This document shows positions 7,650 to 24,829 of a stretch of DNA of 46,418 nucleotides, piece after piece. This DNA comes from Myxococcales bacterium (GTDB lineage: Bacteria > Myxococcota_A > Polyangia > DRWM01 > JAAZOP01), in assembly GCA_012797735.1 (NCBI GenBank), contig JAAZOP010000066.1, positions 1 to 46,418 on the forward strand, in the 5' to 3' direction. How positions within the stretch are numbered: the first letter of the stretch is position 1; each line of letters begins with the position of its first letter. The translations under genes and the position numbers were made by a program. Under the pieces are notes generated by a model. That model worked only from the letters and a program-made list of their open reading frames with translations. It did not search any database and was not told the DNA's origin.

Positions 7650-8954
7650 TCATCGGTCGGCCGTCGCCGTCGCCCCCGGCGCGACGAACCGCCGGGTCAC
7701 TTCCGGCGGCAGTTGGCCGGGGTACACCTTCCCCTCGAAGAGGAAGGTCGGGGTGCCGCGAATCTGCAACGCCCGGGCCGCCTCGATGTCCGCCGCCACG
7801 ACCTGCCGCCCGCGGCCCGCTTCGAGACACTCCGCGAAGCGCCGTTCGTCCAGATCGGCGGCCGCGGCCACGTCCCGCGGCTCGATCGGTTCGCGACGAC
7901 GTCCCTGCTGGAACAGGAAGTCGTTGGCCGCCCAGAACTTCCCCTGCTCGTCGGCGCACGCCGCGAACTCCGCGTAGCGGCACGACCAGCGGTGGAACGG
8001 GCGGTCCACGTCGGGATGGCAGGCCTGGTCGAGCGGCAGGTGGCGGTGCACGACCTGGAGCCGCCCCGCGGCCTGCTGGACGAGCCGGCGCAACTCCTCG
8101 TGGCGACGGCCGCAGTACGGGCACTGGTAGTCGCTGAACTCCACCAGCACGAGGTCCGGATCGGCGGCACCGATCCAGGGATGGCCGTCCGCGGTGTGTC
8201 CGGTCGGCAGGCCGGCGTACGGAAGATCGAGCTTCGACTCCCAGTAGGCCGGCACCGCGGCGCGGACCGCGACGACCGTGCCCAGCGCGACCAGCGCCGC
8301 CGTCGCGGTCGCCGCCGGTCGCGCCGCCAATCCGCGGAGGTCGGCCGCCAGCGGCCGGTGCCCGGCGGCGCGCGCCCGGCGGCACGCCCCCAGCCCGACC
8401 CCCAGAATCGCGAAGTTCAGGACGTAGCTGCACAGGCACAGGATGCACAGGGACTCGATGTACAGGACGGAGATCGTACCCAGGACCGCGCTGACCACCG
8501 ACATCGCGGCGCCCAGGACGAGGAGCAGGCCGCAGGGCCAGGCCGGGTGGGGACGGCGGCGCACGAGGCCCCACCCGGCGAGCCCCGCCACCAGCGCGTA
8601 GCCGAACAGGCCCCAGACCGAAACCGGCAGACCGAGGAACACGGACCAGGGGCTGGCCGCCACCGTCTCGCAGTTCACCTGCTTGCTCAGCGCGCAGAAC
8701 GAGTGGAACGCGGGGTTGGTGTGGGTCTGCACATGGATCCGGGTCAACTCGACCGAGACGCCGAGCCCGGCCAGCGCCAGCACCAGCAGCGCGAGAAACG
8801 ACCAGCGCAGGGGCTTCGCCGGCGCCGCCGTCGCCCCCGCCGCGGGGATCGCCGGCTCGACCGTCCCGGTCGTGACGCCCGTCTCGGGGGTCGCCGGCGC
8901 CGTCGCGACGGGACGGTCGCCTCCTTCGCAGTCCTTCGCCTTCGCCTCGCCCAT
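7650..8954 (-). CDS. vitamin K epoxide reductase (VKOR) domain fused to DsbA-like thioredoxin-fold oxidoreductase
   Basis: N-terminal membrane domain with loop Cys pair (FCALSKQVNC) and membrane CxxC (CILC). C-terminal soluble domain with the DsbA-type active site FSDYQCPYC and ...IRGTPTFLF. Confidence 0.85.
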   Translation of the reverse strand: MGEAKAKDCEGGDRPVATAPATPETGVTTGTVEPAIPAAGATAAPAKPLRWSFLALLVLALAGLGVSVELTRIHVQTHTNPAFHSFCALSKQVNCETVAASPWSVFLGLPVSVWGLFGYALVAGLAGWGLVRRRPHPAWPCGLLLVLGAAMSVVSAVLGTISVLYIESLCILCLCSYVLNFAILGVGLGACRRARAAGHRPLAADLRGLAARPAATATAALVALGTVVAVRAAVPAYWESKLDLPYAGLPTGHTADGHPWIGAADPDLVLVEFSDYQCPYCGRRHEELRRLVQQAAGRLQVVHRHLPLDQACHPDVDRPFHRWSCRYAEFAACADEQGKFWAANDFLFQQGRRREPIEPRDVAAAADLDERRFAECLEAGRGRQVVAADIEAARALQIRGTPTFLFEGKVYPGQLPPEVTRRFVAPGATATADR

Positions 8955-11019: not shown

Positions 11020-11375
11020 GCGGCCGTCTGGCGTTGCCCGTGCGCGACGGCGAAGGGCTCCAGGCGCGGCTCGATGCCCACTTCGGACGCGCGCCGGCCT
11101 TCGTCGTCGTCGACCCGGACGGCACGGAGCCGCCGCGGCGGCTGGTCAACGACGGCGCGCAGGCGGAGCACGGCGCGGGGATCGGGGCGGCGGCCCTGCT
11201 GCTCCGCCACGGCGTCACGGCCGTCGCCGCCGAGCGTTTCGGTCCCAAGGCCGAGCAGGCGTTGCGGGCCGGCGGCGTCGCGTTGTTCCTCGCCCCCGGC
11301 GGCTTGACGGTGGCCGAGGTCCTGGAACGCTTCCGCGCCGGAACGTTGGCGCGCCACGAACGCAAGGTCTACTGA
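11016..11375 (+). CDS. NifX/NifB-C-terminal-type family protein
   Basis: GTG at 11016 overlaps the upstream stop (GTGA). LALPVRDGEGLQARLDAHFGRAPAFVVVD...GIGAAALLLRHGVTAVAAERFGPKA is the typical HFG-containing NifX-like layout. Confidence 0.75.
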   Translation: MSGRLALPVRDGEGLQARLDAHFGRAPAFVVVDPDGTEPPRRLVNDGAQAEHGAGIGAAALLLRHGVTAVAAERFGPKAEQALRAGGVALFLAPGGLTVAEVLERFRAGTLARHERKVY

Positions 11376-12235
11376 TGCACCTGGTCGTCGCCAGCGGCAA
11401 GGGGGGCACCGGGAAGACCCTCGTCTCGACCCACCTCGCCTGGCTGGCCGCCGGGCGGGGGCTCGAGACGGTCTACGTCGACGCCGATGTCGAGGCGCCC
11501 AACGGCCATCTCTTCCTGGCGCCCGCGGTGGAGCGCGAGGAGCGGCACGCCCTGCCGCTGCCCGTGCTCCCCGCGGGCCGGTGCGTCGCCTGCGGCGCCT
11601 GCCAGGACTTCTGCCCGTACCACGCGATCCTCGTCCTGCCGGGCACGGTGCTGGTCTTCCCCGAGCTGTGCCACAGCTGCGGCGGCTGCGTGCGCGTCTG
11701 CCCTTCGGCCGCGCTCTCGGAGGCGCCGCACGAGGACGGCACGCTGCGGGCGGGACGGGCGGGGCCGCTCCGTTTCCTCGACGGTCGCCTGGACGTCGGC
11801 GAGCCGCGAGCGGCGCCGCTGATCCGCGAGGTGCTGCGTCGAATCCCCTCGGGCGTCTTCGCCGTCGTCGACGCCCCTCCCGGAGCGTCGTGCGCCACGG
11901 CCGCGGCCCTGTCCGGGGCGGACCGCGCGTTGCTGGTGACCGAGCCGACGCCGTTCGGCCTGCACGACCTGCGGTCCGCGCTCCGGCTCTGCCGATCCGC
12001 CGAGGTGCCCGCCGCGGTCGTGCTCAACCGCGCCGACCTCGGCGACGACCGGCCCCTGCGGGAGTTCCTCGATGCCGAGCGGGTGCCGCTCCTGGCCGCC
12101 TGGCGCTACGACCCGGACGTGGCGGCGGCGGTCGCCCGGGGCGAGCTGGCGGCGCGGCGCGTGTCGTGGCTGCGCGAGGCCGCGGAGCGTCTGCTCGACG
12201 TCTGCCTCGCGCCGGCGGAGGTCGCCCGGCCATGA
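11375..12235 (+). CDS. MinD/ParA-superfamily P-loop ATPase with inserted 2x[4Fe-4S] ferredoxin domain
   Basis: ATG overlaps the upstream stop (TGATG). ASGKGGTGKT P-loop. CVACGACQDFCP and CHSCGGCVRVCP (two CxxCxxCxxxCP motifs). DAPPGASC switch region. Confidence 0.85.
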   Translation: MHLVVASGKGGTGKTLVSTHLAWLAAGRGLETVYVDADVEAPNGHLFLAPAVEREERHALPLPVLPAGRCVACGACQDFCPYHAILVLPGTVLVFPELCHSCGGCVRVCPSAALSEAPHEDGTLRAGRAGPLRFLDGRLDVGEPRAAPLIREVLRRIPSGVFAVVDAPPGASCATAAALSGADRALLVTEPTPFGLHDLRSALRLCRSAEVPAAVVLNRADLGDDRPLREFLDAERVPLLAAWRYDPDVAAAVARGELAARRVSWLREAAERLLDVCLAPAEVARP

Positions 12236-13140
12236 AACAGGTCGTCGTCGCCAGCGGCAAGGGCGGCACCGGCAAGACCTCGTTGGTCGCCGCCTTCGCC
12301 GAGCTCGCCGGCCGGCCCGTCGTGCTGGTCGACGCGGACGTCGATGCCGCGAACCTCGCGTTGCTGCTCCCCGGGGAGGACGCGCCGGCGCGCGAATTCG
12401 AAGCCGGTCGCCTCGCCAGGATCGATGCCGTGCGGTGCACGTTGTGCAAGCGGTGCGTCGAGGCGTGCCGTTTCGACGCGCTCCGCCTCGTCGAGCGGCG
12501 GCTCGTGTTGCGGGAGATCGCCTGCGAGGGATGCGGCGTGTGCGCCGTCGTCTGTCCCGAGGACGCCGTGTCGTTCGAGCCGCAGCGGGCGGGCGAGTGG
12601 ACCGTGCGCGAGACCCGGTTCGGCCCGCTGGTCCATGCCGCGCTGACTCCCGGGGCCGGCAACTCCGGCAAGCTGGTGGCTCGCCTGCGGGAGGCGGCCC
12701 GCGGGCTGGCCGAGCGGCTGGCGGCGCGATGGCTGGTGATCGATGGGCCGCCCGGCATCGGCTGTCCGGTTCATGCGTCGGTCGCCGGCGCCGACCTGCT
12801 CGTCGCCGTCACCGAGCCGACGCCTTCGGCGCTGCACGACCTGGGGCGACTCCTCGAGTTGGCCGGGCACTTTCGGTTGCCCGCCGCCGTCGTCCTCAAC
12901 AAGGCCGACCTCGATCCCGCCGGCACCGAGCTCGTGGCGGCGGCGGCGGCGGCCCGCGGCGCCGAACTGCTGGGCCGCGTGCCGTTCGATCCCGACGTGC
13001 CGCGCCGTCTCGCCGCCGGTCAGGGCCTGCTCGCGGTTCCCGGCGTTCGCGACGCCGTCGTTGCCTGCTGGCGTGCCGTGGTCCGGCGCCTGGACGCGCC
13101 AGGGGACGGAGCGGAGGAACGACAGGATGCCATTGTATGA
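12232..13140 (+). CDS. MinD/ParA-superfamily P-loop ATPase with inserted 2x[4Fe-4S] ferredoxin domain (paralogue)
   Basis: ATG overlaps the upstream stop (ATGA). ASGKGGTGKT, CTLCKRCVEACRF, CEGCGVCAVVCP, DGPPGIGCP. Confidence 0.85.
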   Translation: MKQVVVASGKGGTGKTSLVAAFAELAGRPVVLVDADVDAANLALLLPGEDAPAREFEAGRLARIDAVRCTLCKRCVEACRFDALRLVERRLVLREIACEGCGVCAVVCPEDAVSFEPQRAGEWTVRETRFGPLVHAALTPGAGNSGKLVARLREAARGLAERLAARWLVIDGPPGIGCPVHASVAGADLLVAVTEPTPSALHDLGRLLELAGHFRLPAAVVLNKADLDPAGTELVAAAAAARGAELLGRVPFDPDVPRRLAAGQGLLAVPGVRDAVVACWRAVVRRLDAPGDGAEERQDAIV

Positions 13141-13514: not shown

Positions 13515-16500
13515 ATGCCGAACACCGCATGGAGCCGCACCCTGTCGCCGTTGGTGGTCGCATCGTTGGTCGCGCTCGCCGCCGCCGCGGCCGCCGACCC
13601 GGTGCTGGTCGAGTTCCGCTCGCCGGACGGCACGCCGCTCGTCGCCGCCGGGGACGCCGCCGTCCCGTGGGGCCGCTCGGCGCACGAGGCGACGCGCAAG
13701 CAGGTGGAGGCCCGGGCGGAGGCGATCGCGACCGCCCGCGCGGCGCTGCTCGACTCGCTGGACGCCGATCTGCGGGCGCGCGCCCGCGGCGGCTACCGCC
13801 ACATCCCGCTCGTCCGGATGGACCTGACGGCGGAGCAGCAGGCGGCGGTGGCGCTCCACCCGCTGGTCGCCGGGGTCTACCCGGACCGGCTGCGCCGCCC
13901 GCGGCTCGAATCGTCGCTCGCCTACCTCGGCGCCGAACGCTGGCACGCGGCCGGCGACGACGGCTCCGGCACCGCGGTCGCGGTGCTCGACACCGGCATC
14001 CGCTACTGGAACGGCTACTTCGGCGCGTGCGATGCGCCGGGCGACGAAGGGTGCCGGGTGAAGGTGTTCGAGGGGTTCGCGACGTTGACCTTCGGCTCGG
14101 GCACCACCGATCCGTACGAGGTGGCGGAAGCCGAGCCGCACGGGACGAACGTCGGCGGGATTGTCGGCGGGGTGGCGCCCGGCACCGACCTGCTCAGCCT
14201 CGGCGTGTTCGCGGTCTATGACCCCGACCCCGAAACCGGATTCAGCGGCGGCGCGGCGTCGTCCGACGGGGACGTGGTCGAGGCGCTGGACTGGTGCATC
14301 GAGCACCAGGTCGAGTACCGGATCGTCGCCGCGAACATGTCGCTCGGGTCGGAGCCGGACCCGGACCTGCACGGGTACTGCACCGGCTGGATGGCGGGCT
14401 CGTACCTGTCGGCCTTCGCCAACACCCGCGCCGCCGGCATCCTTCCCGTCGTCGCCTCGGGGAACGAGTACGTGAAGACGGCGGTGGCGGCGCCGTCCTG
14501 CGTCGCGGCCGCCGTGCGGGTGGGCGCCGGCTACGACGATCCGGCCTTCGGCTACACGTGCGGCACCGGCCCCGTGGTGCCCGGCGCCGTCCTCTGCTTC
14601 TCGAACTCCAGCGCGCTGATCGATTTCATCGCCCCCGGCAACGACATCGATGCCGCGGGCCTGCTGGGCTACTCCGGCACCTCGATGGCCGCACCCCACG
14701 TCGCCGGTCTCGCCGCCGCCTACCAGGCCCGATACGGCACCGACCCGCTGTGGACGCTCGAACGGATGCGGGTCGACGCCGTGCCGGTCCCGGAGGCGTT
14801 CGTCGACCAGCCGTACATCCATCGCTACATCCGGATGGGCGACCACGACGCGGTGCTGCGGTTCGACACCGGCGCCGTGCTCGCCTCGGACTTCGACGGC
14901 CTGCCGATCCCCGACGGCGACCCGGCCGGGTTGTCCGTCTCGACCGAGGTGACGTGCGCGTCCGACGACTGCGTCTCGGGGGTCGTCGGCGCCGTGTACC
15001 TCGACCTGAACGTCGAGCACACCGCGACGGGGGAACTGGCCTTCGAGCTCGAGGCGCCCGACGGCACCACGGTACGGCACGAGGTGGTCGACGACGCGGA
15101 GCTGGGCCGGTACAACGTCAACTCGATCCTCGGCAGCCAGCACCTGCCGAACGCGTTCGACGCGCTGCGCGGCGTGCCGCTCGAGGGCACCTGGACGCTG
15201 CGCGTGATCGACGACACCGCGGGCACGGAGGACGGCGCGTTGTACCGCGCGGCGCTGCTGATCGATTCCGCGCGCGTCCGGCTGGAGGGCGCGATCGAGG
15301 GCCCGCGCATCGCGCGGCCGGGTGAACCGTTCTCCGTGGCGCTGGCGTTCGAGAATACCGGCAACCTCGAGATCACGGACGCGCCCGTCGAGGCGCGGCT
15401 CGTGCGGGCCGACACCGGCGCGGTGGTCGATGCCGCGCCGCTGGCCCTGCCCGTGCCGCTCGCCCCCGGCGCGACGTGGTCCGGAAGCGCCGAGCTGGCC
15501 GGGGACGACGAGGGGCGGTACGAGGTGCGGCTGGTCACGGGCGGTCTCACGCCCGACCTGCGGCCCGGCCTGGTCGCCGAGCCGTTCGAGTTGGCGGTGA
15601 CGCAGCGCACCTTCGCCTCGTTCGGGACCGATCCGCGGGTGCCCGAGCCGGAGCAGAACGCGCAACTCGTCAACTGGAGCGTGGGCCTGATCGACAGCTA
15701 TGCCTGGGACTTCGGCGACGGCACGACGTCCACGGAGGCCCGGCCGACGCATGCCTGGGCGGCCGAGGGGGAGTACGAGGTCCGGCTGACGGTGACCGGC
15801 CCCGACGGGACATCGACCGCCGCCCGGACCGTCCACGTCCGGGAGATCCTCGACCCGCTGCTGCTCGCCGAGGGCGGCGGGTGCGGCTGCGCGGTGCCCG
15901 GGTCGTCCGCCCGGGGGACGACCGCGGGTCTGCTGCTGCTCCTGGCGGGCGCGCTGGCGCTGCGCCGCCGGCGCCGCGCCTCCCTGTGGTCGCCGCTCGT
16001 CGCGGTCGCCGTCGGTCTCCTGGCCGCGGGCTGCGACGAGATCCGGCCGCGCGACTTCGACGCGGGCGTCGACGACAGCGGCCTCTACCCGTCGGGCCCC
16101 TGGATCTCGCTGCTCGGACCGGCCGATCCGACCCAGGGCGACGTGACGCTCCACCTGCGGCTGGGGCACGAGGGTTCGCGGCCGTGCGACCTGACGGTCG
16201 AGTACCGGGTCGGGGAGGGGGCCTGGCGACCCGCGACGCTCGACCCGTCGTCCGTCACGACAGGGTTGGCGTCCTCGCCCGAGGCGGGGACGGAGCACGC
16301 GCTCCTGTGGCGCTCCACGACCGACCTGCCCGGCGACACGCCCGGCGTCCGCGTGCGGGTGTCGGCCACGGACGGCGAGCGGGAGGCGGTCCCGGCGGTC
16401 ACCGAGCCGTTCCTGCTGCTCAACTTCTTCGTCACGCACCCGAAGCCCGTGCGGATCACCGAGGTGTCGGTCGCCGACAAGGACGCCGATTCGGGCGAGG

Positions 16501-17978
16501 TGATCGTGCCGGGGCGGACGCGCGACGACTACGTCGAGTTGGTCAACGTCACGACCGAGGACCTCGACCTGACCGGCTGGACGCTGCGCATCTCCAGCTC
16601 CAGCGGCGCGCGCGACGAGTTCCCCCTCGACGGCGTGGTGCTGCCCGCCGGCGGCCGGAAATCGATCGTCGAGGACGGGGCGGAGTACGGCGGCGGCTGG
16701 CCGTTGCCGCGCACGCTGCCCTGGACCCCCGGCGGCTACGGCAGCGCGGCCCTGGTGGCGACCTACGAACGCGGGGTCGATTTCGTGCGTTGGGGCGGTT
16801 CTCCGGAGCGCCCGCCGGCGGGTCTCGAGTGGACCGACGACCGGCCGCTCCCCGCTCCCCAGACGCTCACGGTGCTCAACCGCATCGAGGAATCGTCCGA
16901 CGGCGATCGGGCGAGCGATTTCTGCGTGGCGCACCCGTCGCCCGACGAGGCGTCGGCGGGCTGCCTGCCGCGCCTGCCGCGCGGCGCGGTGCTCGTCACC
17001 GAACTCGATTCGCAGGGCACCAACGACCAGATCGAGGTGCTCAACCGTTCCGGCGGCCCGGTCGATCTCGCCGGCTGGGTCGTGCTGTGGGACGGCGACG
17101 ACCTCGGCGCCGGCGCGATCCCTCTGGCGTCGTACGAGCTGGCCGACGGCCAGCGTCTCGGGCTCCGGGACAACGGCACCGCCGGGCGGATCGTCTCGGG
17201 CGTCATGCAGCTCGGCGCCAACCTCAACATCGATGGCCTGATCACCACCGCCGTCGGCCTCCAGGACCCCTACGGCGACGTGATCGATTTCCTCGCCGCC
17301 GGTGGCTCGACCGTCCGCTGGCTCGACTGGAACGACACCCATCCCACACCGATGCCGGGCCCGGATACCTCGCTGTCCCGCCGCCCCGGCGACCCGGACA
17401 CCGACAGTTCGGACGACTTCTGCCTGACCGTGCCGAACATCGGCGCCGCGCCCACCGAGTGCCTCGAACCGCTCGGCATCCGGCTGGTGATCGCCGAGAT
17501 GATGACCGGGCGTCCCGACTGGATCGAGATCTACAACCCCGGCCCCGAGGCGGTGGACCTGTCGCAGGTCTACGTCTCGTACACCGCGCCGTTCTACGGC
17601 GGCGCCGTCGGCGACTTCCTGTTGCGGGGTACGCTGGCGCCCGGCGCGCGGCAGGTCGTCGCCGACCGGGATCTTCCGGACGTCGAGGGCGAACTGCTGT
17701 TCAGCGAGAACGTCCAGCTCGCCTCGAACGGTGACGGCTCGGTCGCGTTGCGCGACGTGTACGGCTTCGGCATCGACTTCGTGATGTGGGGCGAGCCCGC
17801 CGGCGTTCCGCTGTGGCCCGACGTGTGGTTCGGGCTCGGCGCCGACAAGTATCCGACGGACGAAGATTCGATCTCGATCCAGCGCCGTCCGCCCGGCGAG
17901 ACCGACACCGACCGCCGCGACGACTGGTGCTGGGCGCTCCCGACCCCGCTGGCGCCCAACGGGCCCTGCCTGGAATAG
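13515..17978 (+). CDS. giant exported ORF: subtilisin-like S8 peptidase, P-domain, CARDB-like, PKD, MYXO-CTERM-like tag, then in frame a lipoprotein signal, Ig-like domain and 3 lamin-tail-like (LTD) repeats
   Basis: Signal peptide LVVASLVALAAAAAADP. S8 triad contexts: VAVLDTG (Asp, 13989-13991), HGTNVGG (His, 14139-14141), GTSMAAPHVAG (Ser, 14682-14684). Proprotein-convertase-type P-domain ending GTWTLRVIDDTAGTEDG. PKD signature WDFGDGTTS...YEVRLTVTG. Three LTD-like repeats (VRITEV...YVELVN...LTGW; VLVTEL...QIEVLN...LAGW; LVIAEM...WIEIYN). No in-frame stop anywhere. Confidence 0.85.
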   Translation: MPNTAWSRTLSPLVVASLVALAAAAAADPVLVEFRSPDGTPLVAAGDAAVPWGRSAHEATRKQVEARAEAIATARAALLDSLDADLRARARGGYRHIPLVRMDLTAEQQAAVALHPLVAGVYPDRLRRPRLESSLAYLGAERWHAAGDDGSGTAVAVLDTGIRYWNGYFGACDAPGDEGCRVKVFEGFATLTFGSGTTDPYEVAEAEPHGTNVGGIVGGVAPGTDLLSLGVFAVYDPDPETGFSGGAASSDGDVVEALDWCIEHQVEYRIVAANMSLGSEPDPDLHGYCTGWMAGSYLSAFANTRAAGILPVVASGNEYVKTAVAAPSCVAAAVRVGAGYDDPAFGYTCGTGPVVPGAVLCFSNSSALIDFIAPGNDIDAAGLLGYSGTSMAAPHVAGLAAAYQARYGTDPLWTLERMRVDAVPVPEAFVDQPYIHRYIRMGDHDAVLRFDTGAVLASDFDGLPIPDGDPAGLSVSTEVTCASDDCVSGVVGAVYLDLNVEHTATGELAFELEAPDGTTVRHEVVDDAELGRYNVNSILGSQHLPNAFDALRGVPLEGTWTLRVIDDTAGTEDGALYRAALLIDSARVRLEGAIEGPRIARPGEPFSVALAFENTGNLEITDAPVEARLVRADTGAVVDAAPLALPVPLAPGATWSGSAELAGDDEGRYEVRLVTGGLTPDLRPGLVAEPFELAVTQRTFASFGTDPRVPEPEQNAQLVNWSVGLIDSYAWDFGDGTTSTEARPTHAWAAEGEYEVRLTVTGPDGTSTAARTVHVREILDPLLLAEGGGCGCAVPGSSARGTTAGLLLLLAGALALRRRRRASLWSPLVAVAVGLLAAGCDEIRPRDFDAGVDDSGLYPSGPWISLLGPADPTQGDVTLHLRLGHEGSRPCDLTVEYRVGEGAWRPATLDPSSVTTGLASSPEAGTEHALLWRSTTDLPGDTPGVRVRVSATDGEREAVPAVTEPFLLLNFFVTHPKPVRITEVSVADKDADSGEVIVPGRTRDDYVELVNVTTEDLDLTGWTLRISSSSGARDEFPLDGVVLPAGGRKSIVEDGAEYGGGWPLPRTLPWTPGGYGSAALVATYERGVDFVRWGGSPERPPAGLEWTDDRPLPAPQTLTVLNRIEESSDGDRASDFCVAHPSPDEASAGCLPRLPRGAVLVTELDSQGTNDQIEVLNRSGGPVDLAGWVVLWDGDDLGAGAIPLASYELADGQRLGLRDNGTAGRIVSGVMQLGANLNIDGLITTAVGLQDPYGDVIDFLAAGGSTVRWLDWNDTHPTPMPGPDTSLSRRPGDPDTDSSDDFCLTVPNIGAAPTECLEPLGIRLVIAEMMTGRPDWIEIYNPGPEAVDLSQVYVSYTAPFYGGAVGDFLLRGTLAPGARQVVADRDLPDVEGELLFSENVQLASNGDGSVALRDVYGFGIDFVMWGEPAGVPLWPDVWFGLGADKYPTDEDSISIQRRPPGETDTDRRDDWCWALPTPLAPNGPCLE
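15873..16034 (+). other. internal MYXO-CTERM-like sorting tag directly abutting a lipoprotein signal peptide (junction 1)
   Basis: GGGCGCAVPGSSARGTTAGLLLLLAGALALRRRRR, then ASLWSPLVAVAVGLLAAG-C. Lipobox Cys codon at 16032-16034. CTG at 15960 precedes the Arg run. Confidence 0.7.
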
Positions 17979-18074: not shown

Positions 18075-20561
18075 ATGAGGTTCCCGGGCGACTCCGTCAT
18101 GAGCGGCATTCAGATCATCCTGGGCGAGCGTTGGGCGACGGATCGCGCCGTCGTGGAGCGCCTGCGATCCCATGATCGGAACCAGGGCGCATTCGATTTC
18201 GCCAATGTTCTCGACGTGGTGGACATCTTCGTGGACGGCGCGAACATCGGCGCCGCCGCCAGCGCCGACGCGATCGCCTGCCTCACCCGCGACCTGCTCG
18301 CGGCCCTGGGCCGCCTCCAGTCGGGCGAGGAGCAGAAGGTCGCGGTGCCGTTCTACGAGTCGTCGTTCGAGCTGGTGATCCAGCGGGTCGCGCGTCCTGC
18401 TCCGGCCCTGCCGCCGCCCGGTCGCCGGCGGCGCGTCCGCCGGCCTGCGGTCGAGGAGCCGAGGGTCCTGCTGACGTTCTTCCGCGGGGGGCCCTCGCCG
18501 GAGATCCTGCTGCGCCATCACGAGGTGCGGCTGCGCGAACTGGCCCGCGCGGTGGCCGGCGCCGGCAAGCGGCTGGCGAACCAGATCGTGAAACTCAACC
18601 GGGCGATGGCCGAGGACGCCTTCGTCCGCGACCTGCGGCAGCTCGCCGAGCGGGTCGGGCAGGCCGGTCCGCCACCGGGCGCGATCGTGGAGCCCGAGCG
18701 GGCGAGGCTGGAGGGGCGGGGCTGGGACCGCATCCCGGTGCGCCACGTGCCGACGTTCGTGTTCCGCGGCGACGCCACCTGGAGCGATCTGCTCGGTCCC
18801 GCGCTTCCCGACCGCGCGGACCTGTCCGCCCTGCTGTTCCGCGGGGACCTTGCGGTGTGGGACGGGCCGCGGCGTCGTCTCGTCGGCCGGGGACACCTGT
18901 TCCTCGTCGCGGAGCGGCTGCTCGCCGTCGCCCGCCACCTGCTCGAGGCCCGCGACAACGGCCGCCCGCCCGCCTCGCTGCGCCTGCAGTGCAACGGCCT
19001 GCTGGTCGGCGTGCGGCCGGGGGAGGGCGACGAGGTGATCCTGTCGTTCGCCGATCGGGTCGACGACCAGGAGCCGGTCACCGTGGCGTTCCGCGACCCG
19101 GAGGCGCTGGTCGGCGTCCTGTTGACGTTCGGCGGCGACCTCCGCCGCGCGATCCTCGAGACGGCGCCCGCCCAGCGGCGCAACCTGCGGTTGCAGGCCT
19201 TCACCGCCGAGCTGCGCCAGCTCGGCGCCTGGCGCGCCGACCTGATGAGCAAGGCGGTGGTCAACCGCGACCCGGCGTCCTACCGCGTCGAGCCATTCGG
19301 CGAGAGCGAGCCGCCGGAGCCGCCGGTGCTGCCGGTGCTGCTCCACGGCGAGCCGCGCCGCATGCGCTACCTCGAGCGCTGGCACCTCGAGGCGGCCGGA
19401 CTGGAGCTGGGCTCGACGTACCTCTGCGGCGACCGGTTGCTCGTGCCCACGGCCGACGCGCTGCTGGCCATCGACCGCGACTCGGGCGAGGTGCTGTGGC
19501 GGTTGGCGGAGCCGAGCCCCGCGGGGCCGCCCGCCGCCGTCGCCTCGGTGATGGTCGGCAACCGCGGCGTGGCCCGCGTCTCGCCCGGGGGCCGCGTCGG
19601 CCTGCTCGAACTGGACACCGGCGCCGAGGTCTGGTCGACCCGCATCCGCCCCACCGTCGGCCGCCCGACCGGCACGACGCTCGGCAGCGCCCGCGCGCCG
19701 CGACTGATCGTGGTGGCCGAGGGCGCTGCGGCCGACCGCGGCCTCGTCGCGCTCGACGCGATCACCGGCGAGGCGCGCTGGCGTTTTGCGGCGCGGCGGG
19801 CCGCCGAGGACGCGACGTTCGAGTTCCAGCGCGCCGGCCGGATCCTGGTCGTCGTCTGCGGCGACTCGGCGATCTACGGCCTGGACGCCGACACCGGTGC
19901 CACCGTCTGGCGCTTCGCCGACCGGGTGCGCTTCGTGCTGCGCCCGCGCCTGGCGCGCGACATGGTCGTCGCCGTCGCCGGCCAGCCGGGGCGTCCCGGC
20001 GCCGCGCTCTACGCCCTCGATGCCTACTCCGGCCGCCCGATCTGGAAGCGCTCCATCCCCGGCGCGCCGCTCGCCGCCCCGACCGTCAGCCAGACCGTGG
20101 CGGTCGTCGCCACCGCCGACCCCGGCGGCGTCGGGCGCCCCGGCTTCACCGCCGTCGAAACGCTCACCGGAACCCCGCTGTGGCGCCGCAGCCTGCCGGG
20201 CCTCGAGCACGGATTCTCCGCGCTGCCGGTCGAGGAGCGGGTCGTGGTCAACGTCGCGGGCGGCTACGTCGCCGCCCTCGAGGCCCCCTCGGGCGACATC
20301 GCCTGGGAGCACCGCGCGGGCGGCGACACCTCCGACATCCCGCAACGCCTCGAGCCGATCCTCCGCGGGACGACGCTGTTCGTGCCGATGGACACGGTGC
20401 AGGTGCTGCGGGCCGACGACGGCGAGGTCGTCCACCGCCTCGACGACGGGCTGGTTCCCGACTGGGTCCGCGTCGACGAGCGCGCCCACCTGTACGTCGG
20501 CGAGCAGTCCGGCCATCTGGCCGCCTACGGCGTCGCCGCCCGGCTCGCCGTCGTGAAATAG
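18075..20561 (+). CDS. cytoplasmic protein: unknown ~430-aa N-terminal region plus C-terminal PQQ-like/BamB-like beta-propeller repeats
   Basis: No signal peptide. Repeats: LLAIDRDSGEVLWR, LLELDTGAEVWS, LVALDAITGEARWR, IYGLDADTGATVWR, LYALDAYSGRPIWK, AVETLTGTPLWR, VAALEAPSGDIAWE. ATG 18099 is an alternative start. Confidence 0.8.
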   Translation: MRFPGDSVMSGIQIILGERWATDRAVVERLRSHDRNQGAFDFANVLDVVDIFVDGANIGAAASADAIACLTRDLLAALGRLQSGEEQKVAVPFYESSFELVIQRVARPAPALPPPGRRRRVRRPAVEEPRVLLTFFRGGPSPEILLRHHEVRLRELARAVAGAGKRLANQIVKLNRAMAEDAFVRDLRQLAERVGQAGPPPGAIVEPERARLEGRGWDRIPVRHVPTFVFRGDATWSDLLGPALPDRADLSALLFRGDLAVWDGPRRRLVGRGHLFLVAERLLAVARHLLEARDNGRPPASLRLQCNGLLVGVRPGEGDEVILSFADRVDDQEPVTVAFRDPEALVGVLLTFGGDLRRAILETAPAQRRNLRLQAFTAELRQLGAWRADLMSKAVVNRDPASYRVEPFGESEPPEPPVLPVLLHGEPRRMRYLERWHLEAAGLELGSTYLCGDRLLVPTADALLAIDRDSGEVLWRLAEPSPAGPPAAVASVMVGNRGVARVSPGGRVGLLELDTGAEVWSTRIRPTVGRPTGTTLGSARAPRLIVVAEGAAADRGLVALDAITGEARWRFAARRAAEDATFEFQRAGRILVVVCGDSAIYGLDADTGATVWRFADRVRFVLRPRLARDMVVAVAGQPGRPGAALYALDAYSGRPIWKRSIPGAPLAAPTVSQTVAVVATADPGGVGRPGFTAVETLTGTPLWRRSLPGLEHGFSALPVEERVVVNVAGGYVAALEAPSGDIAWEHRAGGDTSDIPQRLEPILRGTTLFVPMDTVQVLRADDGEVVHRLDDGLVPDWVRVDERAHLYVGEQSGHLAAYGVAARLAVVK

Positions 20562-20788: not shown

Positions 20789-23700
20789 ATGATGCAGCGC
20801 GCACGGTGGCTGGCCCTGTTCCTGCTCTGGTTCGCCTTCCAGGCCTGCGACGGGGGCGGCTGCGGCGGCTGCATGGAGCCGATCCCGGGCGGCTTCCCGC
20901 TCGCCCGCCGGGTCGAGAACGCGCTCCAGTTCCGCTTCACCCCCTCCGGCATCACCTTCCTGGAGACGCACGCCCGCGAACTGGTCGCCTCGCTGATGCC
21001 GGGCGGTCTGACCTTCGACATCCCCGAGTCCCGATCCAGCGTCGCCGTCGTCGGCGACGTCACGATCTGCCCGGGCGGCGGCTGCACCGCCACCGTCTCG
21101 ATCCGCGGCGTCGACATCCAGCCGACGCCTCCCTCCTCGCTGGTCATCGTGGCGCAGCTCGAGGTGGTGACGTCGAACATCCGGCTCTCGACCGAGCGGA
21201 ACGCGACGTGCCTGTGGCTGTCGGGCTTCGAGTGCGACGTGGATGTCGACACCCGCCGCGCCTCGCCGACCTACAACACGATCCGCGCCACCTTGACGTT
21301 CCGGATCGACACGACGACGGGCTACACGGCCCTGGACGTGACCGACGCGGGCCTCGCCGACGACCTGCAGAACGAGGACATCCGGATCGAGTCCGCGAAC
21401 ACCTGCGGCGCCATCTGGTGTTCGATCGCCAACATCGGCTTCGTCAAGGACTACATCATCGGCACGCTCGAGGACCAGCTGATGAGCACGCTCGACGACT
21501 CGCTGGCCTCGATCCGCTGCATGGCCTGCCCCGACAGCGGCTGCCCGGCCGGCAGCACCTGCAACGGCGACGGCTTCTGCCAGCGTTCCGACGGGACGTG
21601 CGTGCCGACGCTGCTCGGCGTCGAGGGGCAGATGGACCTCGGCGACGTGATGGGTTCGTTCTCCCCCGGCCTGTCCGCCCCGATCCAGCTCCTCGCGGCG
21701 GCCGGCGGCTACGCCAACGTCGACGGCAACGGCCTGAATCTCGGCCTGTTCGGCGGCCTCGAGGCGCCGTCGCCGAGCGCGTGCATTCCGGCCGCCTCCA
21801 CCGGCGACTACTCGCCGGTCGCCCGCGCCCCCGAGTTCGCCACGGGCGACACGTTCACGCACTGCCGGCGCTGCCCGACCGGCTCCGAGTGTTCCGCCGG
21901 GTACACCTGCTCGCCGGCCGGCGAGTGCCGGGACGATGCCGGGGCCTGCGAGATGCGGACCGAGCCGGTGATGGTGAAGCTCGGCGTCTCCGAACAGTTC
22001 CTCAACCGCGCGCTGGGCGGCGTGTTCGACTCCGGCGCCCTCTGCCTCGGCGTCAGCACCGCCGCGGTCCCGCAGCTCAACTCCTCGATGCTCGGCCTGC
22101 TGATGCCCGCCATCTCCATCCTCACCTGGGATCGGACGGTGCCGGTCGCGATCGAGGTCCGCCCGCAGCGGCCGCCGCGGATCGAGGTCGGCGAGACGCT
22201 CACGCTGCCCGACGGCACGGACCTGCCGGCCGACACGCTGCTCGTCGTGCACCTCGACGAGGCGCAACTCGATTTCTACCTCTGGATGTTCGAGCGTTAC
22301 GTGCGGATCCTGACGGTGCAGATGGACCTGATCGTGGGCCTGCGCCTGGGAGTGGAGGACGGCGCGATCGTCCCGTCGATCAGCGCGCTGGCGGCCGACA
22401 ACGTCCTGGTCACCGACGCGGAGATCATCGGTCCGCCGAACAACATCAACGACCTGTTCCGCGACCTGCTCGGGCTGGTGGCGGGGATGATCCCGCCGTT
22501 CGACCCGATCGCGCTGCCGGAGTTCTCCGGTTTCCTGCTCCAGGTCCCCGACGGCGGCATCACGCACGTCGCCGTCGGCGAGGAGGATTTCCTGGCGATC
22601 CACGCCAACCTCGCCGTCGCCGCGGCGCCGGCGCCCCACACCGAGACCTTCGCCCGCGTCACGTCGCTCGACGTGCCCGCCGCGGCGCCCCGGCCGGGCC
22701 GCGAACCGGCGCGGCTGGCCGACCTCCTGCCGACGCTGACGATCGATGCCGCCGCCCGCGCTCCGGCGCCGACCGATCGCGCCTTCGACTACCGCTGGCG
22801 GCTGGACGGCGGGTCCTGGTCGCCCTGGACGCGCGATGCCCGGCTGGTGATCCGCGACCCGCGGCTGGTCTTCGCCGGCGACCACGTCGTCGAGGTCCAG
22901 TCAAGGCTGGCCGACGACGACCGGACGATCGACCGCGACCCGGTGCGGATCGAGCTGCCGGTCGAGGGCGCGGCGCCGCTGGTCGGCACGACGCACCGCC
23001 GCGATCCCTCCCGCGTCCCCTCCACCGGCCTGCGCGGCCGGCCCGACGCCGGCTCGACCTCGTCGTCGGGCTGCGGGTGCGCCGTGCCGGCCGGCCGGTC
23101 CCGGCCGCTCCCCCTGCTGCTCGGCCTGGCGCTCGGCGCCGTCCTCGTTTTGCGACGACGCTGCCGCGCCCTCCTGGCGCTCGCCGGCCTCGTCGCCGTC
23201 GCCGCGGCCGGCACGGCGGTCCTCGGCTGCGGCGACTCGAACAATCCCCCCGCGGACACGGTTTCGGGCTGCACCGCGGACGACCAGTGCAGCGACGGCC
23301 GCTGTTGCCCGGGCACGGGCGAGTGCGTTCCGCTCCCGCCGGCCGACGGGTTCTGTCCGCCCGGCTACGGCTGTCTGGACGGCTCGGGCAGCTTCGATCC
23401 GAGCTGGAATGCGGAGACCTGCGAGTACACGACGGACTGCTGCGCCGAACTGCCGCCGCTGCCGCAGGGCTTCGTCGGGTCGCACTCCGAGGTCGCCGCG
23501 GCGCCGGACGGCACGATCTGGGTCAGCGCCTACTCCGCCGGCCCCAGCTCCCGCTCGCCCTACGGCGACCTGGTCGCCGGCACCTGGGACGCCTCGACCG
23601 CCGCGGTGGACTGGGAGCACGTCGACGGAGTCCCCGCCGGCGTCACCCCGACCGGTTCGGTCACCGGGTGGCGCGGCGGGATCTCGCAGCCCGGCGACGA

Positions 23701-24829
23701 CGTCGGGCAGTACTCCGCCATCGCCGTCGGTCCCGACGGCCGCCCGCGCATCGCGTACTACGACGCCACGCACGGCGCGCTGAAGTACGCCGTCCGCGGT
23801 GCCTCCGGCTGGGTCGTCGGCGCCCCGGTCGATGACGAGGGCGACGCGGGACGCTACGCGGACCTGGCGATCGGTCCCGACGGCCGCCCGGTCATCTCCT
23901 ACAACGCCCTGGTCGAATCGACCGAGTACCCCGGCGCGTGGGTTTCGCAGATCAAGGTCGCGCGGGCCAACGACGAGGCGGGGACGAGCTGGCACGTGAC
24001 CGAGGTCGAGTCGGTCGACATCCCGTGCTGGAAGGAGCTGTGCGGCGAGGGCCGCGTCTGCGTCGCCTCGACCCGCGAGTGCGTCGTGCCCGACCCGGAG
24101 TCGGCCTGCGGCTCGAGCGGTTGCGCCTCGGGCGAGGAGTGCGTCGACGGGTCGTGCGTCGAGGTTTTCGAGACCGCGATCGATTTCCCGGAAGGGGTCG
24201 GCATCGTGACGGGGATCGACTTCCTGCCCTCGGGCGAGCCGCTGGTGGTGTACTACGACCGCGGCGCCTGGAACCGCCTCTCCGGCGAACTCCAGCCCCA
24301 CGGCGACCTGAAGCAGGCGGTGTGGTCCGGCTCCGCCTGGTCCGTCACCGTGCTCGACGGCTCCGGCACCGACGCCGGCTGGTACCCGTCGGTCGATGTC
24401 GACGGCGCCGGGACCCGCCACATCGCCTACGTCGACGGCATCGCCGAGGCGCTGATCTACCTGAACCCGGACGCCGGCGTGCGTGAGGTCGTCGACGGCC
24501 GCTCGATGCCGGGCCGTGCGCGCAGCATCGTCGGCGACGACTCCTCGATCCGCGCCACCGCCGCGGGCGACGTCTGGATCGCCTACCAGGACGCCACCGC
24601 CCGCACGCTGATGCTGGCCCACCGTGCCCCCGGCGGCGGCTGGACCACCGCGAGCTACGACACCGGCACCGACTCCGCCGGCTTCTTCGCCACCCTGGTG
24701 CTCGCGCCCGACGCCGTCACGCCGGTCGTCTCGACGTACTGGCACCGCACGACGACCAGCGGCACCTCGACGACGCGGTACGCCTACGAGGTGGGTGTGA
24801 CGGTGTTCGAGGGGCCGCCGTCGCCGTAG
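20789..24829 (+). CDS. giant exported ORF: lipoprotein signal, BPI/LBP-like two-barrel module with Cys-rich insert, MYXO-CTERM-like tag, then in frame a second lipoprotein signal, Cys-rich region and beta-propeller-like repeats
   Basis: Track ORF 18857..24829 has a junk N-terminal extension overlapping the PQQ-repeat gene. The in-frame ATG at 20789 gives MMQRARWLALFLLWFAFQAC (lipobox). Second module repeats: AIAVGPDGRPRIAYYD, DLAIGPDGRPVISYN, IDFLPSGEPLVVYYD, SVDVDGAGTRHIAYVD, AAGDVWIAYQD. Confidence 0.8.
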   Translation: MMQRARWLALFLLWFAFQACDGGGCGGCMEPIPGGFPLARRVENALQFRFTPSGITFLETHARELVASLMPGGLTFDIPESRSSVAVVGDVTICPGGGCTATVSIRGVDIQPTPPSSLVIVAQLEVVTSNIRLSTERNATCLWLSGFECDVDVDTRRASPTYNTIRATLTFRIDTTTGYTALDVTDAGLADDLQNEDIRIESANTCGAIWCSIANIGFVKDYIIGTLEDQLMSTLDDSLASIRCMACPDSGCPAGSTCNGDGFCQRSDGTCVPTLLGVEGQMDLGDVMGSFSPGLSAPIQLLAAAGGYANVDGNGLNLGLFGGLEAPSPSACIPAASTGDYSPVARAPEFATGDTFTHCRRCPTGSECSAGYTCSPAGECRDDAGACEMRTEPVMVKLGVSEQFLNRALGGVFDSGALCLGVSTAAVPQLNSSMLGLLMPAISILTWDRTVPVAIEVRPQRPPRIEVGETLTLPDGTDLPADTLLVVHLDEAQLDFYLWMFERYVRILTVQMDLIVGLRLGVEDGAIVPSISALAADNVLVTDAEIIGPPNNINDLFRDLLGLVAGMIPPFDPIALPEFSGFLLQVPDGGITHVAVGEEDFLAIHANLAVAAAPAPHTETFARVTSLDVPAAAPRPGREPARLADLLPTLTIDAAARAPAPTDRAFDYRWRLDGGSWSPWTRDARLVIRDPRLVFAGDHVVEVQSRLADDDRTIDRDPVRIELPVEGAAPLVGTTHRRDPSRVPSTGLRGRPDAGSTSSSGCGCAVPAGRSRPLPLLLGLALGAVLVLRRRCRALLALAGLVAVAAAGTAVLGCGDSNNPPADTVSGCTADDQCSDGRCCPGTGECVPLPPADGFCPPGYGCLDGSGSFDPSWNAETCEYTTDCCAELPPLPQGFVGSHSEVAAAPDGTIWVSAYSAGPSSRSPYGDLVAGTWDASTAAVDWEHVDGVPAGVTPTGSVTGWRGGISQPGDDVGQYSAIAVGPDGRPRIAYYDATHGALKYAVRGASGWVVGAPVDDEGDAGRYADLAIGPDGRPVISYNALVESTEYPGAWVSQIKVARANDEAGTSWHVTEVESVDIPCWKELCGEGRVCVASTRECVVPDPESACGSSGCASGEECVDGSCVEVFETAIDFPEGVGIVTGIDFLPSGEPLVVYYDRGAWNRLSGELQPHGDLKQAVWSGSAWSVTVLDGSGTDAGWYPSVDVDGAGTRHIAYVDGIAEALIYLNPDAGVREVVDGRSMPGRARSIVGDDSSIRATAAGDVWIAYQDATARTLMLAHRAPGGGWTTASYDTGTDSAGFFATLVLAPDAVTPVVSTYWHRTTTSGTSTTRYAYEVGVTVFEGPPSP
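23069..23230 (+). other. internal MYXO-CTERM-like sorting tag directly abutting a lipoprotein signal peptide (junction 2)
   Basis: GCGCAVPAGRSRPLPLLLGLALGAVLVLRRR, then CRALLALAGLVAVAAAGTAVLG-C. Lipobox Cys codon at 23228-23230. TTG at 23150 precedes the Arg run. Confidence 0.7.

Follow-up and report, generated by a model that had tools for sequence, protein, structure and literature searches.

Can a single bacterial open reading frame (ORF) specify two separately anchored exported proteins, divided by a sorting tag that ends without a stop codon and runs straight into a lipoprotein signal? This question is raised by a 46,418-bp stretch of DNA with 73.5% G+C (contig JAAZOP010000066.1 of a Myxococcales bacterium, hereafter the window), in which one forward-strand ORF of 1487 amino acids (aa), at 13515-17978 (+), holds both the precursor of an S8-PKD surface protease and the precursor of a lamin-tail-domain (LTD) lipoprotein. 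A sequence-only reading of the window had noticed the junction between the two modules and had suggested that the polypeptide could be exported as a helical hairpin and cut on both sides. Here, we find that its account of a stop-less passage from tag to lipoprotein signal was accurate in each detail checked, that the same junction is kept in 22 full-length orthologues (1469-1538 aa) and that its design recurs in unrelated proteins. On this basis, the ORF probably encodes an exported two-module precursor, that is, a membrane-hairpin polyprotein in which both cuts occur.

The stop-less junction and its two signals

Codons 15873-15977 encode GGGCGCAVPGSSARGTTAGLLLLLAGALALRRRRR (aa 787-821), after which the frame continues into ASLWSPLVAVAVGLLAAGC, with Cys840 at 16032-16034. 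There is no stop codon at the junction, and 647 residues follow beyond Cys840. The first segment has the tripartite layout of a MYXO-CTERM sorting tag, with GGGCGC, approximately 16-18 hydrophobic residues and RRRRR. The NCBIfam MYXO-CTERM model TIGR03901 (curated cutoff of 20 bits) matches this segment over the whole model, positions 1-34 of 34, with a score of 22.8 bits when the full protein is searched and 30.1 bits for a 77-aa fragment. Within the tag, Cys792 (15888-15890, +), invariant in 23 of 23 sequences, is the presumed site of lipidation and of myxosortase cleavage. Helix 1 (approximately aa 801-816; 15915-15962, +) is a hydrophobic stretch predicted to act as a stop-transfer segment from periplasm to cytoplasm, and the Arg cluster (aa 817-821; 15963-15977, +), which doubles as tag tail and as n-region of the internal signal, is predicted to form a cytoplasmic loop. 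Judged by its residues, the segment (15873-15977, +) is a MYXO-CTERM tag in every respect except the C-terminal position, given that 666 residues follow R821 without a stop; the same is true of all orthologues.

The second segment (15978-16034, +) consists of the h-region ASLWSPLVAVAVG and the lipobox LAAG-C840. Its sequence AVAVGLLAAGC fits the lipobox core of PROSITE PS51257, {DERK}(6)-[LIVMFWSTAG](2)-[LIVMFYSTAGCQ]-[AGS]-C, and the n- and h-regions are formed by RRRRR and then 18 uncharged residues up to Cys840. The internal signal thus appears to be a signal peptidase II (SPII) lipoprotein signal by every sequence feature other than its place in the protein: the lipobox cysteine is residue 840 (usually approximately 15-35) and the junction offers no start codon. 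The G+C content at third codon positions (GC3) in this frame is 0.93-0.98 and unbroken through the junction.

The topology was evaluated on 95 junctions of the lipobox type. Between their two helices lie 3-66 residues (median 9 aa), whose net charge has a median of +5 and is +2 or more in 94 of the 95, while the 15 residues past the lipobox cysteine have a median net charge of -3. A positive loop with a negative flank is expected under the positive-inside rule if the loop is cytoplasmic and the domains on either side are periplasmic, and the double role that had been proposed for the Arg cluster fits such a loop. Modelling of aa 705-975 by AlphaFold2 from 18 orthologous fragments resulted in a mean predicted local distance difference test (pLDDT) score of 82. 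The model runs from a confident PKD domain through the tag motif, which is disordered, to helices at aa 801-818 and 826-836 that are separated by a 7-residue loop, and then through a disordered stretch near Cys840 to a confident Ig-like sandwich at aa 863-969.

Conservation and recurrence of the junction

The homology search returned 22 further full-length proteins, with 53-87% identity and the same S8, PKD and LTD architecture, drawn from independent NCBI, JGI, ENA and Logan assemblies; an exact-sequence look-up of the 1487-aa window protein found no database record. The fusion is kept in 22 of 22 orthologues. Across the 23 aligned sequences C792 (the second cysteine of the tag), R817 and C840 are invariant, and the segment between the hydrophobic stretches varies from 0 to approximately 45 residues, in frame in every case. 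Because the layout persists in 22 further orthologues with these three residues invariant, the junction is not a product of chance. The fused ORF was also read directly in the DNA of six contigs from metagenome-assembled genomes (L001, L003, L006, L007, L008 and L009), labelled Myxococcota, Myxococcales or 'Deltaproteobacteria'. A stop codon or indel missed in assembly, or orthologues split into two genes, would have told against the sequence-only reading; the independent assemblies are all fused, with the same stop-less junction throughout, and no orthologue is split.

At the aligned Cys840, residue -1 is G, A or S in all 23 sequences and the PS51257 core is matched in 17, which, together with the invariant cysteine, bears out a lipoprotein-type signal. 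The distance from the last R or K to this cysteine (Cys counted) is 12-27 residues over the orthologues and 19 in the window protein. As a side observation, the orthologue on L006 (JAFDER010000141) aligns as two overlapping tblastn pieces near aa 385 (approximately 7874-7929 of L006), a sign of a possible frameshift, through assembly error or pseudogene decay, that would lie within the S8 domain and away from the junction.

A regular-expression scan of the window found the same junction grammar once more, at 23069-23230 (+), where GCGCAVPAGRSRPLPLLLGLALGAVLVLRRRCR-ALLALAGLVAVAAAGTAVLGC scores 21.7 bits with TIGR03901 against the cutoff of 20. It lies in a 1346-aa ORF (20789-24829, +) of the same design, identified by translation and homologues, that is unrelated to the first and starts with a lipoprotein signal, MMQRARWLALFLLWFAFQAC. 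Neither half of this protein has a Pfam match. Its N-terminal lipobox (...FAFQAC) would leave a lipid-modifiable cysteine at both ends of the first module. A match of the model NF058595 ('lipo-invert invert_tail') over junction 2 fell below the model's cutoff of 37 bits (11.5 bits, E = 0.28) and was discarded as not significant; a literature search on this model found nothing.

This second family has approximately 38 fused members (1215-1571 aa, identity down to 27%), every one of which has the Cys tag, helix, RRR, helix and lipobox cysteine, and approximately 22 short forms (741-1009 aa) in which the tag is terminal. For three short forms (L081, L086 and the P0148 contig), the next gene starts on the stop codon of the tag gene. 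In L081 the tag ends VFRRRTR-stop (...CGG AGG ACG CGA TGA) and the ATG of MKRTIGHASLLAVLATVGC/DCSDD (a slash marks the predicted cleavage site) overlaps the TGA as ATGA. In L086 the tag ends RRRGGGR-stop (...AGG CGG AGA GGA GGC GGG CGA TGA), with an ATGA overlap with MRPALSWAAAGALAIAVLPGC/GCGE, and on the P0148 contig the stop/start overlap is 1 nt. The C-terminal half of the 1346-aa window protein has homologues in the downstream proteins of L081 (538 aa) and L086 (591 aa). The tag tail of these split forms contains the Arg and Gly codons AGG, AGA and GGA, which at the same time spell a GGAGG-type Shine-Dalgarno site 5-8 nt before the ATG (7575-7592 in L081; 7855-7874 in L086). The fused window genes use the Arg codons CGC, CGG and CGA, and the Shine-Dalgarno motif is absent. 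By this comparison the fused and split forms of the second family stand in a Rosetta-stone relation, and the split homologues are comparative evidence that both halves are meant as separate mature proteins. Read from the codons, a one-base insertion in the tail is predicted to be enough for conversion from split to fused. The more distant terminal-tag homologues L082 and L010 have no downstream partner genes, and the pairing of tag and lipoprotein is hence lineage-specific.

Stand-alone halves were also sought for the first family. A canonical terminal MYXO-CTERM ends the more distant S8 relatives P0024, P0025 and P0026 and the L010 homologue, and P0187 is a stand-alone LTD protein that starts with the lipobox signal MRTVRMGSLLLFVGLVAAC/G. 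Four other candidates for a stand-alone LTD protein were rejected: in P0179 no stop closes the frame between the called start and the contig edge upstream of it, and the frame shows CGC...TM...RR (TM, transmembrane helix), indicating a mis-called start; P0184 begins at a contig edge (position 10 of its contig); and P0180 and P0185 start inside the LTD module and look like partial calls.

To evaluate how general the junction is, a 65-position profile made from 29 junctions of both window families was searched against 1.84 billion representative proteins, which gave 259 matches at E <= 1e-3. The best 150 of these 259 matches include 77 proteins of 300 aa or more with one or more internal junctions. 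With the junctions masked, single-linkage clustering by blastp of these 77 and the two window proteins resulted in 30 sequence clusters. One cluster, P0269, looks like a spurious repeat and was set aside as a family, leaving at least approximately 29 plausible unrelated families. The domains found in junction proteins include Kelch propellers, GDSL lipase, VanY and Amidase_2, BNR, cytochrome c, peptidase C25 and cadherin-like domains, and the internal tags of eight clusters all pass TIGR03901 (20.8-35.3 bits). P0189 consists of four modules, and its internal signals end in ...RAEAC/S, as does its true N-terminal signal. P0195, P0196, P0201 and relatives (2000-4000 aa) have internal signals of the signal peptidase I (SPI) type. 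This group comprises 14 representatives with less than 50% mutual identity, and junction positions are conserved in five members of approximately 2,200 aa; after each internal signal the next module of these proteins restarts with A/Q..Y (as read in P0195 and P0201), like the N terminus. As an observation in its own right, P0244 (1226 aa) is a precursor that contains two cell-wall hydrolases, a VanY D,D-carboxypeptidase module and an Amidase_2 (N-acetylmuramoyl-L-alanine amidase) module.

A PEP-CTERM version of the junction was found as well. In P0190 (2500 aa), nine junctions are internal and a further tag is terminal. P0199, P0286 and P0333 resemble it, and the set spans 3-10 modules, in each of which a PEP-CTERM tag is followed by an in-frame signal peptide. 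TIGR02595 (cutoff 16) scores two of these tags at 26.4 and 20.4 bits. By their layout, these four proteins are the equivalent of the junction in the exosortase system. A loose regular-expression scan of the fetched loci returned for the most part GC-rich noise in other frames; the two known families were its sole genuine junctions. Sequencing indels could explain singleton metagenomic cases, but not clusters with more than one member. Taken across these families, the tag-to-signal architecture is real, conserved and widespread. The wider proposition is that stop-less hairpins of sorting tag and signal peptide are a general, essentially undescribed Gram-negative route to exported polyproteins. 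In such a route, a chain of 2-10 modules would cross Sec in alternating directions and be cut at every hairpin by myxosortase or exosortase together with signal peptidase II or I, giving stoichiometric sets of surface-anchored proteins and lipoproteins, interconvertible with ATGA operons by single indels. We regard this generalization as an evenly balanced proposition.

Proposed processing of the precursor and competing explanations

The proposed sequence of events is as follows. The N-terminal signal peptide would start Sec export of the subtilase-P-PKD module, tag helix 1 would halt the transfer and the Arg-rich loop would remain cytoplasmic. Helix 2 would then re-initiate translocation (N-in, C-out), by which the Ig-LTD module would be exported too. 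Through Lgt, LspA and Lnt, Cys840 would be lipidated and the chain cut before it, freeing the lipoprotein. Cys792 would be modified and the chain cut after it by a myxosortase (MrtX, a CPBP-family protease), sending the lipid-anchored protease to the cell surface, and the leftover hairpin peptide of approximately 45 aa would be degraded. Such fusions may have originated from tag/lipoprotein gene pairs with a stop/start overlap (ATGA) via a small frameshifting indel, and may have been tolerated or favoured because processing would regenerate both products 1:1 at the same membrane site.

Parts of this scheme have precedents. In the available text of PMC11980579, MrtX cleaves MYXO-CTERM in a Cys-dependent manner and is active in E. 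coli, and a FLAG tag placed after the MYXO-CTERM of TraA is removed by MrtX, that is, a short C-terminal extension is tolerated; the sorting tags of other systems are described there as working when internal. The same text proposes that Lgt lipidates the MYXO-CTERM cysteine. As a side observation compatible with that published idea, the GGGC motif of the tag (approximately aa 786-796) itself fits the PROSITE lipobox core in many orthologues (P0004, P0007, P0008, P0017, P0021 and others).

Several observations weigh against double processing. In six of the 23 orthologues the lipobox is not a strict PROSITE match: residue -2 is Pro (in four of them with Leu at -3 as well, L-P-[GS]-C) or, in one, residue -3 is Asn. 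L-P-G-C is also found in a genuine N-terminal lipoprotein signal of the same lineage (L086). The relatives retrieved by the homology searches include no split version of the S8-LTD gene, all being fused, and hence the Rosetta-stone argument is borrowed from the second window family. Among the 20 flanking ORFs scanned in the 46-kb window there is no myxosortase (CPBP) gene; nor are there type II secretion system genes. No literature precedent was retrieved for LspA or Lgt acting on a signal behind an 800-aa exported domain and a transmembrane helix, and the AlphaFold2 confidence of both helices is 50-72. With these points counted, we consider it highly likely that the ORF gives a single translated hairpin precursor, and we favour, with less assurance, the reading in which both cuts occur.

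The tag cysteine, the Arg and the lipobox cysteine are invariant over 53-87% identity while their neighbours and the linker length drift, which argues for selection on processing sites and not on a mere anchor. This makes it rather unlikely that the product is a stable, uncleaved or half-cleaved two-pass inner-membrane protein, in which the hairpin anchors two periplasmic domains and the tag and lipobox have merely survived from a gene fusion, or one cut takes place and the other does not. The architecture alone would be compatible with such a bitopic hairpin, and the imperfect lipoboxes of a few orthologues would suit it, but the same two-site grammar occurs in approximately 30 sequence clusters and the split forms encode an ordinary tag protein and an ordinary lipoprotein.

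Far less probable is internal initiation, which the sequence-only reading had named as the alternative. Under this explanation, the LTD lipoprotein would be started separately at a non-canonical codon such as the CTG at 15960, and the upstream frame would merely be without a stop. Translational coupling at exactly this position is indeed used by the split homologues of the second family, and the linkers of L001, L006 and L008 contain an in-frame GTG or ATG and Shine-Dalgarno-like strings. However, nothing like a Shine-Dalgarno motif is found in the DNA of the window junction from helix 1 to the lipobox, which confirms what had been said of the CTG, and this DNA has no in-frame ATG, GTG or TTG either. 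Start codon and Shine-Dalgarno motif are likewise absent from the junction of L007, as is a start codon from that of L009, and it is for these reasons that separate initiation is so improbable. Moreover, the n-region has no conserved Met or Val in the orthologue alignment, and the frame is kept through all linker indels in 23 of 23 sequences, which initiation would not require.

That a sequencing or assembly indel removed a stop between two genes, or that the locus is a decaying pseudogene, is barely credible: one base would be enough to fuse ATGA-overlapping genes, and singleton metagenomic matches in other families are not individually checkable, but the 22 independent orthologues come from different samples and assemblers and are all fused, the strong GC3 coding signal is continuous across the junction and the catalytic residues and domain cores are invariant, from which we conclude that the fusion is not an assembly error.

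Modules, neighbourhood and known systems

The two modules of the ORF are composed as follows. By translation and by eye, the ORF starts with a Sec signal peptide of the SPI type, MPNTAWSRTLSPLVVASLVALAAAAAA/DP (13515-13595, +), with a putative cleavage site. It is followed by a Peptidase_S8 (subtilase) catalytic domain at aa 150-414 (13962-14756, +; Pfam E = 2.6e-18), whose residues D159, H209, N317 and S390 are invariant in the orthologue alignment, by a proprotein-convertase P-domain (P_proprotein) at aa 493-577 (14991-15245, +; PF01483, E = 1.4e-6) and by a PKD domain at aa 711-775 (15645-15839, +; PF18911/PF00801), modelled at pLDDT > 90. After the junction, an Ig-like beta-sandwich at aa 863-970 (16101-16424, +), also with pLDDT > 90, is the first folded domain of the lipoprotein module. 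LTD repeats (16437-17975, +; PF00932, E = 1.5e-23) make up the remainder: PF00932 matches in three stretches, the best at aa 1323-1426, and the boundaries of the first two repeats are approximate.

Several neighbouring genes are of note. A BamB-like PQQ beta-propeller protein of 828 aa (18075-20561, +) lies between the two junction genes. In L008 and L009, too, the S8-LTD orthologue is directly followed by a BamB-like gene (approximately 76% identity), a conservation that suggests a functional link with the S8-LTD gene. Synteny of the 1346-aa junction gene with the S8-LTD gene was considered as well and rejected, as it is not present in L008 and L009. Directly upstream of the S8-LTD gene are two tandem MinD/ParA-type P-loop ATPases with inserted 4Fe-4S ferredoxin motifs (approximately 11375-12235 and 12229-13140, +), the second of which is 82% identical in L004, upstream of the S8-LTD orthologue there. 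A VKOR-DsbA/thioredoxin fusion, a disulfide-bond formation enzyme (7650-8954, -), is encoded near these Cys-rich exported proteins.

If double processing is true, Lgt/LspA and myxosortase act on internal sites of very large precursors, and the substrate rules of both widen. The junction would also lend itself to testing how the MYXO-CTERM cysteine becomes lipidated, a step for which Lgt is the leading candidate. Annotation would be affected, in that ORFs labelled as single 'MYXO-CTERM domain-containing' or 'lamin tail domain-containing' proteins would misstate the number of products, their localization and the lipoprotein count. Split/fused pairs would furthermore predict functional partnerships, such as surface protease with LTD lipoprotein or VanY with amidase, and provide a clean example of interconversion between operon and polyprotein.

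Polyproteins cut at internal signal peptides, with hairpins of anchor and signal, include FbcH of Bradyrhizobium japonicum (cytochrome b/c1) and the structural polyproteins of flaviviruses and hepatitis C virus (HCV). As proposed for the window gene, one ORF gives several membrane or exported products, and a stop-transfer helix and a signal form a hairpin that signal peptidase cuts on the far side. In contrast to the window design, they depend, to our knowledge, on signal peptidase I or the signal peptidase of the endoplasmic reticulum only, with no C-terminal sorting enzyme and no lipidation of both new termini.

Compared with SPII lipoprotein precursors (Lgt/LspA/Lnt; PS51257), the window signal has the same basic n-region, h-region, lipobox with invariant cysteine and acidic residues after the cysteine, but it is internal, starting from residue 817 behind another transmembrane helix. 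Compared with canonical MYXO-CTERM/MrtX substrates, as described in TIGR03901, Haft 2023/24 and the available text of PMC11980579, the window gene shares the tripartite tag, the invariant cysteine, the N-terminal signal and a typical cargo (S8 protease, PKD), whereas its tag is not C-terminal and has approximately 666 residues after it. The traA/traB pair of M. xanthus resembles L081 and L086 in that, in the available text of PMC3325183, the gene of a MYXO-CTERM surface protein and that of its partner overlap by 4 bases; it differs in consisting of two separate ORFs, and TraB is not described in that text as a lipoprotein.

In the portions of PMC11980579, Haft's preprint and the founding PEP-CTERM paper that were available, we found no mention of a lipoprotein or other signal directly after the tag, of split/fused pairs, of multi-module chains or of PEP-CTERM equivalents, and searches for literature on bacterial lipoprotein polyproteins, fbcH and internal PEP-CTERM found nothing directly relevant. 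The sequence-only reading knew of no described bacterial exported polyprotein of this design, a claim that went too far: the design is neither unique, given the approximately 30 clusters among the best 150 of 259 profile matches, nor wholly undescribed, given the fusion with an internal MYXO-CTERM in MXAN_5598 of M. xanthus (Wall laboratory, mBio 2025, PMC11980579). In the available text of that paper, internal MYXO-CTERM cases are termed 'rare', MXAN_5598 is an adhesin, tag and outer-membrane barrel/OmpA, and the authors propose a gene fusion analogous to TraA/TraB, with processing of the N-terminal part. Compared by description only, MXAN_5598 and the window gene are alike in that a single ORF encodes a large exported module at the N terminus, then an internal MYXO-CTERM and, after it, another envelope module, and they differ in the module downstream of the tag, which is an outer-membrane beta-barrel/OmpA in MXAN_5598 and a predicted lipoprotein in the window gene.

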